33,495 bases of DNA from Deltaproteobacteria bacterium TL4. GTDB taxonomy: Bacteria > SAR324 > NAC60-12. Location: positions 1 through 33,495 of the forward strand of contig JBBCAX010000103.1 of NCBI GenBank assembly GCA_051382335.1. The letters are read 5' to 3'. The stretch's first letter is position 1, and every line of letters begins with the position of its first letter. Shown here piece by piece: positions 7,911 through 29,900 of the stretch. The translations under genes were made by a program, and so were the position numbers. Under the pieces are notes generated by a model that did not search any database, had not been told where the DNA came from, and saw only the letters and a list, made by a program, of their open reading frames with translations.

Positions 7911-9326
7911 ATGAAAAGTTTAAATTATTGTATATTCTTCGTCTTCGGAGTATTCCTGCTGCTCCCATCCTATGGCTTCGCCTATACTTATCAGGCTCAT
8001 CAAAATACCTCGGAAGACGCATTTTTGTTTATGGAAACGAAGGGGACCATCCAAATGCGTTGGGTTTCAGACTATCTGAAAGCCAAAGCCGGAGGACGTT
8101 ATACGGGGCACTGTGAGCAAAAAACGGATTTGATCAGCGATTTATCAGAAGCTGACAAGAATACACAAAGTGGATGTGGCGCAGTTGGAATTATGAGAGT
8201 GGGCGGGGTAAAACCCGATTATTTCCGTGATGCCTTTTGGGACGATTTGATCAAATATGGCTGGAATTTTAATGTGCCCTTTTTAAAGAATAACTTTACT
8301 TCCTGGTATCACTTTATTAACTTGTTACCAGGAAAAGCGGATGCGGGTCATACGTTGAAAACGGATGTGTATAACGATTATGACGGGTATTCCTGGCAAG
8401 CCAGTTATGGATTTCCCGATGTCGGACTTGATTATGGCTCTGCCGCTTTCATGAATAATGCGTGGATGACGGTTGATTTACCTAACTGTACAGATAGCGC
8501 TTGCAGTGAACGATACTCGGTGGTACCTCAAGGCAATCCCGCCTTGGATTATAAGCAAAATAGAGCGACTACCTCGGTAGGTCAGCCCCATGGCGCAAAG
8601 AAAATAGGCAGTGATGACCGCACCAATTATAACTGTTTTTCCGATACACGAATTACAGGAAATTGTCCGGATGTTGGGGCAAAAGTAAAAAGTGGGGACT
8701 ATCACTATCAAATTCCGAATGTGAGCAAAGCGGATAATTCGGTTTTTAGTTCGAGTTATTATTACTCCAACGAAGACTGGGTGATCTATGAGCCTGCGGA
8801 CAATGCCGCAACCTTCTATTACAACGAGTTTTTCCTGGAAGGGGGCCAAACACGAAATTCGGTTCTGGATAAGAGTTCGATTGCCGGACGGTACTATTCC
8901 CTGAAGGCCGATGAAATTATTTATCTCGGAGTGGTCATGCACTGGGCTACGGATATCAACCATATTGCTCATATCTGGAGTACCTTAGGGTATAATCATG
9001 GAGAGTATGAAACCTGGTCTGATGAATGGTATGGAAATCGGAAGGTTAATGGAACTCAGCCGCAAAATTTCGAAAATTTTGATGAGGCCCGAGCTTATCT
9101 TGACGCGCGTCAAAACCGTTATCAGAACGGGGTTTCTTTGGAAACGGCCTTTATGGAACAAGCTTTTCATACTTACCATATACGGACACGGAGCGGGTAT
9201 GATATTTTGACCAACTCAGACGATGGAACACGAAAGACTTTTGGAAAATGGTCCATTAATAATTCGATTGCCTTTACTGCCGCTTTATTTGAAAAAGGGG
9301 TTCTTGATCTCAGAAATAATAAATGA
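7911..9326 (+). CDS. Secreted zinc-dependent phospholipase C / S1-P1 nuclease-fold protein
   Basis: Signal peptide ending GFA, mature start YTYQAH, then PDYFRD, WYHF, LGVVMHWATDINHIAH and HGEYE: the ordered Zn-ligand pattern of the PLC/P1 fold. Confidence 0.75.
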   Translation: MKSLNYCIFFVFGVFLLLPSYGFAYTYQAHQNTSEDAFLFMETKGTIQMRWVSDYLKAKAGGRYTGHCEQKTDLISDLSEADKNTQSGCGAVGIMRVGGVKPDYFRDAFWDDLIKYGWNFNVPFLKNNFTSWYHFINLLPGKADAGHTLKTDVYNDYDGYSWQASYGFPDVGLDYGSAAFMNNAWMTVDLPNCTDSACSERYSVVPQGNPALDYKQNRATTSVGQPHGAKKIGSDDRTNYNCFSDTRITGNCPDVGAKVKSGDYHYQIPNVSKADNSVFSSSYYYSNEDWVIYEPADNAATFYYNEFFLEGGQTRNSVLDKSSIAGRYYSLKADEIIYLGVVMHWATDINHIAHIWSTLGYNHGEYETWSDEWYGNRKVNGTQPQNFENFDEARAYLDARQNRYQNGVSLETAFMEQAFHTYHIRTRSGYDILTNSDDGTRKTFGKWSINNSIAFTAALFEKGVLDLRNNK

Positions 9327-10639
9327 ACCGACTTCAATTATTGAGTCATAAAATCCTCCAAGGGGTTTTTATGACTCTTTTCATTTTATACCTCCCTGTT
9401 TTGGCCATTGCGGAGCCTGTCTTAAAGTTCCGTGGTGGTCAAATCTCGCCAGGAACCTTCCAATTGCTTTATCAAAGCGACTTTGCGAGTCAAAAAGATC
9501 CCAACCTGGTTGTGGAATTACTCGAAAAAAGAGAAACCAAGGGCGCTCTTGCGACAAAAAGAGGTTTGAATGAGGATCGCAACTATGCTTTGTTTTTTAT
9601 CCTAAAAAAACGGAGCCGCATTGCGCGACAGGCTCAGTTGACGTGGCGCAATTTACATCCTTCCCATAATGAAAAAAACTTTGAATATGTGCGCATTTGG
9701 CGTTATTTGGAATTTGATATTGATTTAAATCGCCTGACTCAACAGCTTTCTGCTTATCTTGATAAGACAGGGATTCATACGCGCCTGACGATTGATCCAG
9801 AAAAATTGAATATAGGGTCCTGGAGTGAAGGAACCATCACGTTGGCAATGCTCCAGAAAGAAATGTTGCCGGAAAAATGGGAAAGGATGTTGAGTTATCA
9901 TTCGATTCCTCAACGTCAGTCCTTGCAGGAAAGTTTGGAATTGTGGACGAATGAAATTCTGAGTCAGAAAGCGGTGGAACATTTTAAAGCGGATGAACAA
10001 GAGTTAGCTCGTCAAGATCACAATAGTGTCGCGGACTCTTATTTAACGATGAAATACGCGCAAGGCTGGAAGGGGATTTATCCGGTAAAACCCATTGAAA
10101 TTCCTTTTCAACCTACAGAGTTACTCGAACATTTTTTAAAAATGAAAAATACTATCCAAAAAATAGAATGGGTTGAATATCGCTATACGATTGTTAAAGA
10201 TGCGGCTGCCGCTAAGTCTTTTCGAGACGCGCTCAAAAAAAATAATGATTTTATGGACTTAGCCCGCCAGTATGCGGTGAGTCCTCACTATGTTGAAACC
10301 GCGAAAAAACAGCGTGTTCCTCGTATCCATCCCAAGTATGGTCCCGAACAGGATCATCTCCGACCTTTTATTGAGAGGCAAGTCCTGGCTTTTGCAAAAA
10401 CGGAAAACCTTGATATTCAGCAAATGCCTTCAGAAGAAGGGATCAAACTGATTCAAATTCTCAACATCCAAAAAGAAAACAAGGAGGTTCAGTTTGCTGA
10501 TTATCGGACGCTGGTCAGAATGGATTTGCAGAAGAAAATTCTAACGCGTCAATTACCTATTGAACTGCAAGACGTTCAGAATGAACTTCATTTTCAGGTG
10601 AACTTATCGTACGATGCGTCTCAATTTCACTGGAAATAA
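9323..10639 (+). CDS. Exported PpiC/SurA-like peptidyl-prolyl isomerase/foldase (divergent)
   Basis: Signal-like N-terminus. C-terminal IVKDAAAAKSFRDALKKNNDFMDLARQYA and SEEGIKLIQI resemble parvulin motifs. ATGA overlap with the PLC gene. Confidence 0.6.
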   Translation: MNRLQLLSHKILQGVFMTLFILYLPVLAIAEPVLKFRGGQISPGTFQLLYQSDFASQKDPNLVVELLEKRETKGALATKRGLNEDRNYALFFILKKRSRIARQAQLTWRNLHPSHNEKNFEYVRIWRYLEFDIDLNRLTQQLSAYLDKTGIHTRLTIDPEKLNIGSWSEGTITLAMLQKEMLPEKWERMLSYHSIPQRQSLQESLELWTNEILSQKAVEHFKADEQELARQDHNSVADSYLTMKYAQGWKGIYPVKPIEIPFQPTELLEHFLKMKNTIQKIEWVEYRYTIVKDAAAAKSFRDALKKNNDFMDLARQYAVSPHYVETAKKQRVPRIHPKYGPEQDHLRPFIERQVLAFAKTENLDIQQMPSEEGIKLIQILNIQKENKEVQFADYRTLVRMDLQKKILTRQLPIELQDVQNELHFQVNLSYDASQFHWK

Positions 10640-10648
10640 AAAAGGAAG

Positions 10649-10680
10649 GGACACACCCTGTCTCCAAAGACAAGGTGTCC
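10649..10680. terminator. Imperfect hairpin between convergent genes
   Basis: GGACACACCCTGTCT-CCAA-AGACAAGGTGTCC lies between stops at 10639 and 10691; an A-run precedes it (U-tail for the minus strand). Confidence 0.45.
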
Positions 10681-10690
10681 TGGGTGACGC

Positions 10691-12028
10691 TTATTCAAGG
10701 AAAAGGTAATCGGTCCGATCTTGGTGTTTTTCCATAGCGAAGGCTTCTTTGGATTTATAGATTTTATCCACGAGTTGAATGTATCGTTTGATTCGGGGTG
10801 CGATTTCAGGAGTGATTTCATCGGAATGTTCTTGGTAATACTTGATCATTAGAGCAATAGAAGCCTTGGCGGAAGAGTGCTCGCCTAAGTAGACGCCTAA
10901 GGCGACCACACGGAAACAACACCGGAAAAAGTGCTCCCCTGTGGCACTAGGTAATATCTTACGGTAAGCGCCTAAAGCCACACTCAAAAACTCGTGTTCG
11001 CGGTCCATTGATTTTTCGATCTTTGACAGCAACGCCGCCTTTAGTGAATACTCTCCAATTTTGTGTATTTCTCCTTCAAAATTATGCTCGTCATATTTGT
11101 AAAGAAGTTCAGAGGTTCGCATTGCGAGCTGATACGCCAGTATTCCATTTTCAATGGTCCGTTCTATCTTGTACATGGAGTCCGGAAGATTTCCCATCAT
11201 CTCTTTCATTTCTGCCAATTGAGGGAGTAAGGCTTTTTGTAACGCTTTATCTTCCAGAATACTATGTGAGGGATTTTGAGAGTGTCTGAACGCATTGATG
11301 GTATTGCTCGCAAAAAAAGTTTCTGGGCAAACACTCACTTCCAAGGCCGTAAAGTTGCAGAAATCATGATTTGAGGTAGGTCCGACATACTCCGGAATCA
11401 AGAAAAAGTTAGGTTTCATGATCTGGCTGTTGGGTTTCAAAGCGTAACTTTTGAAAGTTGGCAGATCGGAGCCTAAAAAGCAGCTTAATTTAATGGCAAC
11501 CAAAGATTTGTTACTCGCCTTGATTGCCGCTTTCTTCTGGTTTTCCTTGGATTCATCAAAGTACTGCTCAGAACTAAAACAAGCTTCAACACTAAACATA
11601 CCGTCATCCGTCTTAAACGGAATGACTGCGACCGGCCCTTTGGCTGGATGTTCTATTAGGTGACCTTCTCCCCTCAAGATTTGAGGAATACCAGCCTTAA
11701 AAACGTATCCTTCTTCTGCAAGCGTTCTACGGGCTTCTCCAGAGATCATGTTTGTTAATTCACCTACAGCATCCGCAACATCGTCATTCAGCTTCGTGTA
11801 CGACTCTCCAAGCATATTATTCACAATGCCAACAATCGCAGGTTCACTGAAGGTCAAACTGATGCTTCCATTGGTGCCTCCACTCAGGCCAATGATTGCG
11901 GAAATGATACCCGTGGCTTCCTGACCCTCTTTTTTGTAAGGTCGACCAGGTTTCGCTTCGGTTTGTGCCATTGTCTTCAACACCTTCATGGTTGAAGCCA
12001 GAAAAGGATTGATGTATTCTATTTGCAT
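10691..12028 (-). CDS. CheX-family chemotaxis phosphatase domain fused to an unknown ~290-aa C-terminal region
   Basis: N-terminal EYINPF..ISAIIGLSG..GSISLTF..DAVGELTNMISG (ExxN motif)..IPF..G.F.VE covers ~150 aa; the remainder is not recognised. Confidence 0.85.
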   Translation of the reverse strand: MQIEYINPFLASTMKVLKTMAQTEAKPGRPYKKEGQEATGIISAIIGLSGGTNGSISLTFSEPAIVGIVNNMLGESYTKLNDDVADAVGELTNMISGEARRTLAEEGYVFKAGIPQILRGEGHLIEHPAKGPVAVIPFKTDDGMFSVEACFSSEQYFDESKENQKKAAIKASNKSLVAIKLSCFLGSDLPTFKSYALKPNSQIMKPNFFLIPEYVGPTSNHDFCNFTALEVSVCPETFFASNTINAFRHSQNPSHSILEDKALQKALLPQLAEMKEMMGNLPDSMYKIERTIENGILAYQLAMRTSELLYKYDEHNFEGEIHKIGEYSLKAALLSKIEKSMDREHEFLSVALGAYRKILPSATGEHFFRCCFRVVALGVYLGEHSSAKASIALMIKYYQEHSDEITPEIAPRIKRYIQLVDKIYKSKEAFAMEKHQDRTDYLFLE

Positions 12029-27420: not shown

Positions 27421-28041
27421 TGCCGCTTAAGCGAAGCGAGCGTACCACTCAAGGTAGGGTGCCGCTTAAGCGAAGCGAGCGCACTACTCAAGGTAGGGTA
27501 AGCGAAGCGAGCGCACCACTCAAGGTAGGGTGCCGCTTAAGCGAAGCGAGCGCACCACTCAAGGTAGGATGTCGCTTAAGCGAAGTGAGCGCACCACTTA
27601 AGGTAGGGTGCCGCTTAAGCGAAGCGAGCGCACTACTCAAGGTAGGGTGCCGCTTAAGCGAAGCGAGCGCACCAGAAAACCGCCGTTCCCTTATTTATGG
27701 TGCGCTCGCTTCGCTTAAGCGACACCCTACTGGCTCAACTCTTATCGCCACGGCTGGATTTGTGGTGCGCTCGCTTCGCTTAAGCGGCACCCTACTGGCT
27801 CAACTCTTATCGCCACGGCTGGATTTATGGTGCGCTCGCTTCGCTTAAGCGGCACCCTACTGGCTCAACTCTTATCGCCACGGCTGGATTTATGGTGCGC
27901 TCGCTTCGCTTAAGCGGCACCCTACTGACTCTTATAGTCGGCTGGATTTATGGTGCGCTCGCTTCGCTTAAGCGGCACCCTACTGACTCTTATAGTCGGC
28001 TGGATTTATGGTGCGCTCGCTTCGCTTAAGCGGCACCCTAC
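27420..28041. repeat. Amplified GTAG-REP array: 7 forward and 6 inverted copies of GTAGGGTGCCGCTTAAGCGAAGCGAGCGCACC
   Basis: Forward units have a 39-nt period (linker ACTCAAG; first copy 5'-truncated, third with an internal deletion). Central spacer ~27674-27698. Inverted units have 65-nt (x3) and 58-nt (x2) periods with repeated linkers. Confidence 0.93.
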
Positions 28042-28111
28042 TGGCTCAACTCCTATCGGCAGCGCTGGGTTCCCTCCCAACGAAGGTGGAACAGGGTTCC
28101 CTTGTTTTGAA

Positions 28112-28244: not shown

Positions 28245-28790
28245 CTATTGTCCGCCTCGAACACACCGAACATAGTAGCTATACGTCTTATAGTAGTAGT
28301 TGACGTAGCCGTAGTAGAAGTACACGTACCATGCGTCGGACGTGTTATCGGCGGACGTCGTAGACGACCAATAATTCGAGGAGGAAGTATTGAGGAAATA
28401 CGTCGTATTGATCGCGGGAGCATAAGTCGAATCACTCGTAATTGATTCCAGTTCCCGCACATTCGGCAGTCTCCAATCACTATACCCGCCCAAACTTAAG
28501 GCTTCACAATAGCTAATGGCAGCTTCCCACGTTCGAGACGTTCCATCATCCTGTCGTTGCCACATCAACCCACGCGACCGATCCAAGACCGTGTCGGAGT
28601 TAGCCAAATAACCCAAGGACCAAATTCCCAATTGTCCACCTCGGACGCAACGGACATAGTGGCTACCGAACCTACTGTAGCCATAGGCGCCGCCGCTGTA
28701 GACTCGGCCGGCGCTGAAGTCCACGCCCCACATGCTAAACATGTAATTGGCGTACATTGTAGACGACCAATAACCCGAGGAGGAAGTATA
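28245..28790 (-). pseudogene. 5'-truncated tandem DUF1566 (Lcl C-terminal, CLec-fold) protein; probable DGR target with two VR-like cassettes
   Basis: DTVLDRSRGLMWQ, TWEAAISYCEAL.LGGYSDWRLPN..EL.SI and YWSST...AW.V.F..G.V....K....YVRCVRGG. The YWSST..YVRCVRGGQ module occurs twice (28632-28790 and 28245-28391). ORF-track residues upstream of 28790 derive from the inserted palindrome. Confidence 0.85.
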
Positions 28791-28863
28791 TAGCTGTCCA
28801 GGAAAGTTTTTTCCCTGGGAGCGAGGGTATCTTGCCCTCACCGGAGGGCAAGATGCCCTCGCT
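28789..28863. repeat. REP-like palindromic element, copy 1 (left part; interrupted by the intron and resuming at 29524)
   Basis: TATAGCTGTCCAGGAAAGTTTT..CTGGGAGCGAGGGTATCTTGCCCTC-ACCG-GAGGGCAAGATGCCCTCGCT | CCCAAGACAAA. Removing 28864-29523 restores the palindrome. Confidence 0.85.
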
Positions 28864-29523
28864 GTGCGCCTGCCATGGCGTTTAACTTGGTGGTGAAAGT
28901 CCACTCATTACCCCGACAGGAGGGAAAATGTAGTCAGAGTCAAGGGTGTCTAAAGAAACTTGGGACAGGCGCCTCAACAGAGGGAACCAACGAGTGTCGC
29001 AAGCCAATGAGGAATCTGAAGGAAGACCGAGACAAATCTGCCGTCTAAACTAGGTGTGAATCTCCGGGAGGCGGAGGCAAGGGATGAGGTAGCAGCGATT
29101 ACTAAAGTCTAATATCCTGAACGTAACTTGCAGACGTAGAAGAGGTAGGCGGGCAGAGAAAGTGAAACGAATTACCCAGGGAAGAGCCGACAGACTGGCG
29201 GACATCATAACTACGATGCTTGCCTCCGCTCAGCGACTGTGAAGACACAGAAGCGCATATTTGTGGGTTTTCAGAGGAAGCCCTAGTAGTCGTAAAGTAT
29301 CCTGCCAAGGAAGAGGTGGGCGACCCATCGGAGGAGAAAACAGGATACAAGCAGCTGGAACAATGAATGGTTCCGACTCCAGGGACTGAAGTGTATCTCC
29401 GACTTTGCTTTACCCCACTGGCTTCTTTTATCCGTAGGGAAGACCGTATTGTGAGGAGCCGTGTACGGACCCGTAAGCACGGTTCTGTGAGCGGACGGCT
29501 CCGAGAGGAGCCTCCGACTCGAT
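28864..29523 (+). mobile_element. Group II intron ribozyme, 660 nt, with the RT/maturase ORF deleted (non-autonomous)
   Basis: 5' GTGCG at 28864. Short domain V GGAGCCGTGTACGGACCCGTAAGCACGGTTCT (29455-29486, AGC triad). Domain VI hairpin with bulged A at 29517 (-7) and 3' end AT. EBS1-like loop AGCGA (29094-29098) complementary to exon TCGCT (28859-28863). Confidence 0.9.
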
Positions 29524-29760
29524 CCCAAGACAAATTAGGAAACCCCCTTAGGTTCTCAAGACACTCCCCCATCGGTTGGACGCGCCCCCTGTTAAATTTT
29601 CCATTAGCATTACAAAAACGCTATGTCAAACGATAATGGCCTTCTTCAAATTTTAATTTTTCGGAACAGTTGGTTTTTGGATGCTGTCCCTTGCTGAGCC
29701 TCCAAGCGGTTTTTCTTTTTCTTCCTTGCGTCTTTTTTTAAGACTTGAGCACTTATTAAG

Positions 29761-29862
29761 TATAGTGCTCAAGGAAAGTTTGTCCTGGGAGCGAGGGCCT
29801 CTTGCCCTCACCGGAGGGTGGGACGCCCTCCCCCCGAGACAAAATTTTTCTGGACATCTATA
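29761..29862. repeat. REP-like palindromic element, copy 2 (uninterrupted)
   Basis: TATAGTGCTCAAGGAAAGTTTGTCCTGGGAGCGAGGGCCTCTTGCCCTCACCGGAGGGTGGGACGCCCTCCCCCCGAGACAAAATTTTTCTGGACATCTATA. The right end is a 19/22 inverted match to 28789-28810. Confidence 0.85.
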
Positions 29863-29900
29863 ATATTGGTGACGGCTTTGCGCAGGTTTTTGAATTTTTT

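Follow-up and report, generated by a model that had tools for sequence, protein, structure and literature searches.

The window (the whole stretch analysed, 33,495 nt of contig JBBCAX010000103.1 from Deltaproteobacteria bacterium TL4; contig C103 below) carries a gene cut by a MITE that is itself interrupted by a group II intron. The gene, of the Lcl_C (DUF1566) type, is represented by its 3' part on the reverse strand (28245–28790), with the 5' part outside the window. Next to it lie the left 73 nt of the MITE (28791–28863, forward strand), delimited by comparison of MITE copies, with a TAG end and a TA duplication at 28789–28790. They include a palindrome core (28817–28863) with a left arm at 28817–28839, a spacer at 28840–28843 and a right arm at 28844–28863, which is continued beyond the intron by CCC at 29524–29526. 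The intron occupies 28864–29523 on the forward strand, and in its 3' exon the right arm of the MITE continues for about ten bases (29524–29533, same strand) before another dispersed repeat begins, the right end of the MITE being missing. An intact sister MITE (29761–29864), found by nhmmer, with TA on both sides and an empty site with one TA on contig C296, begins 238 nt past the intron end, where an initial annotation made from the sequence alone had recorded an uninterrupted sister palindrome. That annotation had also regarded the palindrome as an extragenic landing pad, a description that does not hold at this site, where the MITE cuts the Lcl_C gene.

A non-coding dispersed repeat of ~330 nt, with around ten copies, covers 29532–29900 of the window and often carries the MITE at one TA. 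Between a kinase/SpoIIE gene and the Lcl_C fragment, an array of GTAG-headed REP-like units of 39, 58 and 65 nt, in both orientations, extends over 27421–28054. The Lcl_C fragment contains tandem domains with a fold typical of diversity-generating retroelement targets, and RT genes on contigs C34 and C135 adjoin Lcl_C paralogues. Compared to the fragment, C135:19489–19620 displayed adenine-biased differences (15 vs 1), as the template repeat of a related gene might show; no candidate template repeat with sufficient adenine bias was found for the cut Lcl_C gene.

Structure of the 660-nt intron and its guide pairings

The RT-less group II intron of the initial annotation was confirmed by its ends and by two Rfam matches above gathering: domain I (RF02001; 28997–29172, 74.9 bits against a gathering score of 32) and domains V–VI (RF00029; 29454–29523, 48.4 bits against 40). 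The 660 nt begin with GTGCG and end with AT, in agreement with the group II GUGYG...AY ends, and contain the catalytic triad of domain V and the bulged A of domain VI. A comparative structure of 33 introns placed domain I at 28869–29180, a branched domain II of ~87 nt at 29184–29270 and the 5' part of domain III at 29280–29355, all on the forward strand. These are followed by a domain IV remnant (29356–29455) made up of the final codons of the lost RT/maturase ORF. Domain V (29456–29485, from Rfam and relatives) is 30 nt long, the same size as in CGC class C relatives, with an AGC triad and an AA bulge that marks the intron family of the window, compared to AC in 109 of 111 relatives. Domain VI (29489–29521, from Rfam) has its bulged A at 29517.

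Comparison with other copies indicated that the ORF was lost through an internal deletion with its junction at ~29355/29356. In the comparative structure domain III covers intron positions 417–513 and has two basal stems, with 98 of 99 cells paired in each. The ORF-removing deletion starts inside this domain, at about intron position 492, and the closing strand is absent as a consequence: the 3' strand of both basal stems has been removed, and the start of domain IV is missing as well. Free folding of the 660-nt copy gave only a non-conserved alternative pairing for domain III, a domain described as a catalytic effector (PMC9275481, excerpted text). A private G-to-C change at 28873 disrupts one base pair at the base of domain I, in a stem paired in 165 of 165 cells in relatives. 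Of the six closed domains of a group II intron, the window copy lacks a closed domain III, whereas all six are present in a sister copy on contig C396. The broken domain III and the domain I change, together with the single copy and the differing deletions of sister copies described below, lead us to read the window copy as probably a decayed, crippled and fossil-like intron. Folded as a single sequence, the intron gave no useful signal (z = -0.5), and a promoter scan found four sites (2.0 ± 1.5 expected), none of them upstream of the intron on its own strand.

The guide sequences of the intron could be assigned by covariation with the exons of its relatives. EBS1 (AGCG, 29094–29097) lies in the loop of a GGTA/TACT stem (29088–29091/29100–29103) and faces IBS1 (CGCT, 28860–28863), located inside the 3' arm of the palindrome. 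The stem was paired in 130 of 132 cells of the comparative structure, and domain I folds with AGCG(A) (29094–29098) in the EBS1 loop. A search with the protein of a second intron family of this genome (family B, below) as query gave 80 loci (43 in a close group, 30 of these 43 with a whole 5' part); a set of 32 introns resulted once the copies of this genome and of genome G009 had been added and C396, along with two loci whose exon was <6 nt, excluded. EBS1 formed 99 of 128 possible Watson–Crick pairs with exon positions -1 to -4 in this set (permuted mean 39; 0/5000 permutations), with 31, 23, 29, 16 and 6 of the 32 introns paired at positions -1 to -5, respectively, and 13 other registers at chance. 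A domain V scan of metagenomes yielded an independent set of 80 loci; 24 of these had a 5' end, and the 21 used formed 56 of 84 pairs (permuted 30; 0/5000), with 16, 18, 16, 6 and 4 of the 21 paired at -1 to -5, position -4 being weak. The pairing originally proposed was one of five bases, loop AGCGA with exon TCGCT; its stem and 3–4 of its bases covary, and the fifth pair, at -5, is probably incidental on these counts (6/32 and 4/21).

EBS3 (G, 29139) pairs with IBS3, the C at 29524 (17/24 Watson–Crick, the top of 315 columns). No column rose above background for an EBS2 against exon positions -5 to -16, a scan in which a shifting register could be missed; the best EBS2-like excess, 14.5, compares with an EBS1 value of 59.7 and with 13.1 in the background column ranked next. 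Recognition is of the IIC type, with a 3–4 bp EBS1, an EBS3 and no EBS2 signal, the pattern that PMC7923331 describes for IIC introns in its excerpted text. The class C-like hairpin targeting envisaged at the outset is supported.

The host MITE and intron copies in the genome

With the intron excised, CGCT abuts CCC and the palindrome arm is whole again, exactly as first described, and the rebuilt 70-nt empty site folded far better than its shuffles (z = -5.2). A MITE of ~100 bp, flanked by TA, has this palindrome as its core, and iterated nhmmer searches returned 186 matches to the MITE in the genome, 131 of them full length. TA was present on both sides in 100 of the 129 full copies with flanks. 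Matches to the rejoined site were obtained for 31 of these 100; by manual reading of the match output, 14 of the 31 were gap-free on another contig, among them the C296 empty site of the sister MITE, and the rest were self or gapped matches. The element is short, non-coding and present in many copies, with terminal inverted repeats and a target duplication, as expected of a MITE, and its core consists of two short hairpins in an inverted layout. In size and doublet layout this core is REP-like, and to that extent the initial description stands, yet it lies inside a TA-duplicating 100-bp unit and is not a free REP (GTAG/CGTC head, 20–40 bp, no target duplication, RAYT-linked). Twelve Y1_Tnp matches occur in the genome. 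TA duplication is an IS630-type trait (PMC4853749, in part) and the one feature of the MITE that suggests an IS630-type helper; the MITE end motif was not found near the transposases at the eight DDE_3 matches in the genome. MITE-related elements were detected in one (G009) of 87 other genomes of the phylum.

The sister copy on C396 is 1246 nt long, is 98.6% identical to the window intron and has domain III intact, with scraps of RT0, RT4 and the X-domain retained. Further copies of this family (family A) are partial: C222 carries a 5' end and a 3' end, and C42 a 5' end. All assembled family A junctions (4/4 5' and 3/3 3') fall at CGCT|CCCA within the MITE; the same hairpin arm, followed by CGCT, precedes every 5' junction. 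This bears out the expectation of copies at one register in a multicopy palindrome. The insertion on C42 is in an ordinary arm of another MITE subfamily. Interrupted ORF pieces joined to other elements occur on C200 and C74, and C431 carries a related intron with a deletion starting within domain II. No intact family A ORF was present among the 20 RT matches of the genome, in which several intron ends fall at contig breaks. The 660-nt deletion form was assembled once and its sister copies have different deletions or interruptions; as three intron ends coincide with contig ends, the assembly could conceal further 660-nt copies or an intact parent.

Family B is 70% identical to family A, and the hairpins that precede its copies belong to the same MITE family or to a different repeat. 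Its copies are truncated, deleted or MITE-interrupted, and the ORFs of C120 and C237 are truncated or MITE-interrupted. Identity of the family A X-domain scrap is 58% with the family B protein and does not exceed 32.5% with any class C row. On C237 (~10630–10740) the same MITE is inserted in the family B maturase ORF, with a CRISPR array just upstream, so MITE and intron invade each other. Four of the five family B 5' junctions (C120, C183, C365 and C69; not C431) are one base short of the EBS1-loop register. Three 97-nt fragments considered as a third family proved to be truncated 5' ends of intron B. Genome-wide, domain V/VI is matched 51 times and RT 20 times; several intron families are represented, many of them nested in or broken by other elements.

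The initial annotation had taken the intron for a non-autonomous element mobilised in trans, a claim that the assembly does not sustain, with a single copy cut in domain III, sister copies with differing deletions and no intact cognate ORF. In such a reading the 660-nt RNA would be a functional ribozyme moved by a related RT, supplied by a hidden parent or by the intron B protein of C120/C237. Domains I, II, V and VI and EBS1/EBS3 are intact, the identity to C396 indicates a recent origin, and an RT of the same clade is encoded in the genome (58% identity over the X-domain piece). ORF-less introns moved in trans are also known (PMC2882425 and PMC4424553, both in part), and two ORF-less relatives keep domain III (757 and 792 nt, below). 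The one assembled copy, however, compares with 17 Thermosynechococcus ORF-less introns that share one breakpoint (PMC2882425, in part); the conserved fold of domain III cannot be completed, the private change in domain I leaves a mismatch in its basal stem, the start of domain IV is gone, and as assembled the ORFs of intron B are either truncated or split by the MITE. Mobilisation in trans is on balance unlikely. The window copy is probably best explained as a decayed copy of a retro-mobile, class C-sister intron that homed into the hairpin palindrome of the MITE core, and it matters chiefly as a marker of that intron lineage.

The 5' exons present an anomaly. Of the 117 two-hairpin MITE cores in the genome, three are symmetric in both hairpin loops and none of the other 114 is; all three carry a family A intron (Fisher 1.5e-5 if independent, although three of the four 5' junctions share ~60 nt of 5' exon and may not be independent). 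An intron-free single-hairpin MITE on C188 is also fully symmetric, so symmetrisation can occur without an intron. The C396 insertion is a mosaic: a MITE in reverse orientation supplies its outer left end and its 3' exon, and the inner 60 nt are of the C103 type. The three 3' exons derive from three different MITE ends and diverge within 4–6 nt of the intron. Two copies in one other genome (L057 and L059) share no 5' exon. Co-transfer of the donor 5' exon, hairpin template switching, a preference for rare perfect hairpins, or spread at the DNA level may each account for the symmetric cores, and three cases are too few to choose among them.

Spread at the DNA level would require one insertion in a rare symmetric MITE, followed by dispersal with its 5' exon through MITE transposition or gene conversion; in that case the copies would owe their common register to descent from one insertion, not to repeated homing. 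The divergence of the three distinct 3' exons so close to the intron fits reverse splicing instead, C42 lies in an ordinary arm of another MITE subfamily, and relatives in many phyla occupy unrelated hairpins with matching EBS1. Even with a symmetric core in three of four 5' junctions and in none of the 114 other cores, and with the mosaic ends of C396 around a C103-type inner 60 nt, we regard this history as quite unlikely. A more tentative extension of the homing explanation, which we would not expect to hold in full, is that the clade targets REP/MITE palindromes with IBS1 in the stem and that insertion rewrites the 5' exon, through donor co-transfer or perfection of the palindrome; such rewriting would explain why the only three symmetric cores all carry the intron. 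Upstream co-conversion occurs in yeast mitochondria. To our knowledge, one-sided co-conversion is not expected for bacterial retrohoming. The excerpted text of PMC8393795 contains nothing on group II co-conversion. The symmetric exons provide a small, testable hint of exon remodelling at integration.

Lineage of the intron and target sites of its relatives

A quick tree of 77 rows was built, leaving out 16 near-duplicate, short or distant rows, with the family B protein as a proxy for family A, which has no whole ORF. In this tree 38 close relatives formed one clade (SH-aLRT 100) that joined CGC-triad class C at 97. The references for g1, g2, g3 and g6, one each and all long-branch, fell outside the node uniting the clade and class C; the tree held no reference for g4, g5, U1 or U2. 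The nearest solved structures to the clade protein were class C RTs. Clade members mostly have a FADD RT without endonuclease, with an AGC triad wherever domain V was found. Variety g2 of class F, suggested by the FADD motif, was rejected: B.th.I3 grouped with the g3 reference, at a path of >2.7 from the clade. D.p.I1, the single long-branch reference of variety g6, did not cluster with the clade.

When compared to strict class C (definitions of PMC7923331 and PMC4424553, both in part), the RT is sister to the class and not nested in it in the 77-row quick tree, and the CGC triad is absent, with AGC both in the window intron and in the clade loci with domain V found. A hairpin is present, with no terminator T-tail and no attC seen, and the site lies at or in the stem. 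The AGC triad is no argument against an IIC-type RNA because a short AGC domain V also occurs in D.p.I1, the g6 reference. The initial annotation had left the class undecided, and strict class C indeed does not fit in triad or nesting; with an IIC-type RNA and a clade next to class C, the sequences point to a class C sister with IIC-type RNA recognition, and the class question is largely resolved. The clade is already sampled in a 2022 survey (PMC8919778, in part), where it is lumped with class C and not set apart: Table 3 of that survey types as C the introns of matching length from Methylomonas methanica MC09, a protein of which clusters at 90% with a clade member. Five clade contigs do not appear in the tables of PMC8919778. 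The clade may already have a published name.

Hairpins were modestly enriched at the insertion sites of the relatives. Rebuilt empty sites beat their shuffles in 14 of 32 relatives compared to 6 of 66 control windows (p = 9e-6, overstated by kinship among relatives, which are not independent); family A copies of this genome, one near-duplicate and one tandem insertion were left out of the 32, and the other 18 sites were without clear structure. Clade 5' exons reached z <= -2 in 6 of 28 (controls 3/49) and 6 of 18 (controls 4/28) cases, compared to 15 of 18 for class C. Among structured sites the insertion point lay <=2 nt from the last paired base in 14 of 17 for the clade and 5 of 16 for class C (Fisher p = 0.005, likewise overstated by kinship). 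Several relatives target palindromes with a GTAG head or of another REP-like kind.

Full-length relatives measure ~2.03–2.07 kb, and 19 of the 21 metagenome introns with both ends are full length. The closest relative (86% identical; G009:C40, L017 1501–2257) is ORF-less, 757 nt long and intact in domain III; it lies outside any MITE with only three EBS1 bases paired, and no same-clade RT was found in G009, where the single weak match had 31% identity. A second ORF-less relative that keeps domain III, at L213, has 792 nt. Exact-pattern scans for the intron 5' end found no match in metagenome or viral contigs. The intron at L043 is flanked on either side (~817 and the intron 3' end) by the same 8 nt of the palindrome arm, in the manner of a target duplication. 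Four loci (L061, L086, L108 and L151) carry tandem introns, the second starting directly at the 3' end of the first.

The structured sites bear on a further explanation, in which EBS1/EBS3 and local single-strandedness alone direct insertion and the palindrome is incidental. In agreement with such a view, strong structure is absent from more than half of the sites in relatives. A match of five bases is nevertheless too unspecific: CGCTC occurs at 8871 sites genome-wide, of which only 199 (2%) are in MITE matches, so a 3–4 base pairing alone is inadequate for target choice. Together with the enrichment of site folding over flanking controls, this makes an incidental palindrome highly improbable. 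In the homing explanation that we prefer, a full-length parent, ~2.03–2.07 kb if like its relatives, would have reverse-spliced into the palindrome of the 100-bp TA-duplicating MITE, with the insertion base chosen by the 4-nt EBS1 (AGCG on CGCT) and by EBS3 (G on C). The intron protein most likely would have read the hairpin in single-stranded DNA at a replication fork, a dependence carried over from the class C literature. One later deletion would have removed the ORF together with the closing strand of domain III, presumably with loss of activity, and the MITE would have lost its right end.

Comparison with known systems

A hairpin combined with 3–4 matching bases is a variation on a known class C habit. 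In the literature covered, with most subscription journals and Simon 2008 outside that coverage, there was no account of a group II intron that homes into a REP or a MITE core. To terminators and attC sites, the hairpins so far known as targets of IIC-type introns, the present sites add MITE and REP-like palindromes. The distinct geometry of the lineage, with guide pairing inside the stem, bears on the respective roles of the protein and the 4-nt guide in targeting, and the lineage is also relevant to ORF-less IIC ribozyme tools.

The class C terminator introns (B.h.I1, GsI-IIC and the E.r. intron) share with the clade a 3–4 bp EBS1, an EBS3 and no EBS2, a short domain V, an En-minus RT of ~435 aa, hairpin-linked sites and the nearest PDB matches. 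The clade differs from them in its AGC instead of CGC triad, its mostly FADD RTs, its length of ~2.03–2.07 kb, the lack of a T-tail, its separate position in the tree and sites that are usually at or inside the hairpin stem. Class C-attC introns of the S.ma.I2 type resemble it in using as target a non-terminator DNA stem-loop that belongs to another mobile system; however, the integron-linked reference (L111) falls inside class C and not in the clade, and the target here is a MITE core. Variety g6 (D.p.I1) has the short AGC domain V, a class C-like RNA (PMC4244168, in part) and frequent proximity to terminators (PMC8919778, in part). D.p.I1, as one long-branch reference, differs in its YADD motif, a best identity of 40% and a position outside the node of the clade and class C (97).

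In being ORF-deleted, with edge remnants and a length of ~0.6 kb, the window copy is similar to the ORF-less TeI3 introns of Thermosynechococcus and to ORF-less IIC introns used as HYERs (PMC11754743, in part). The excerpted text of PMC2882425 describes the 17 TeI3 copies as mobilised in trans, with one shared breakpoint in domain IV. There the deletion form was multiplied, whereas the breakpoint in the window cuts domain III in a form seen once. Finally, RmInt2 homes into the inverted repeats of ISRm17 (PMC5894124, in part) and similarly uses the repeats of another mobile element as a multicopy target. RmInt2 is a class D intron with EBS1 and EBS2 in an autonomous IS host, in contrast to the IIC-type recognition of a non-autonomous 100-bp MITE described here.
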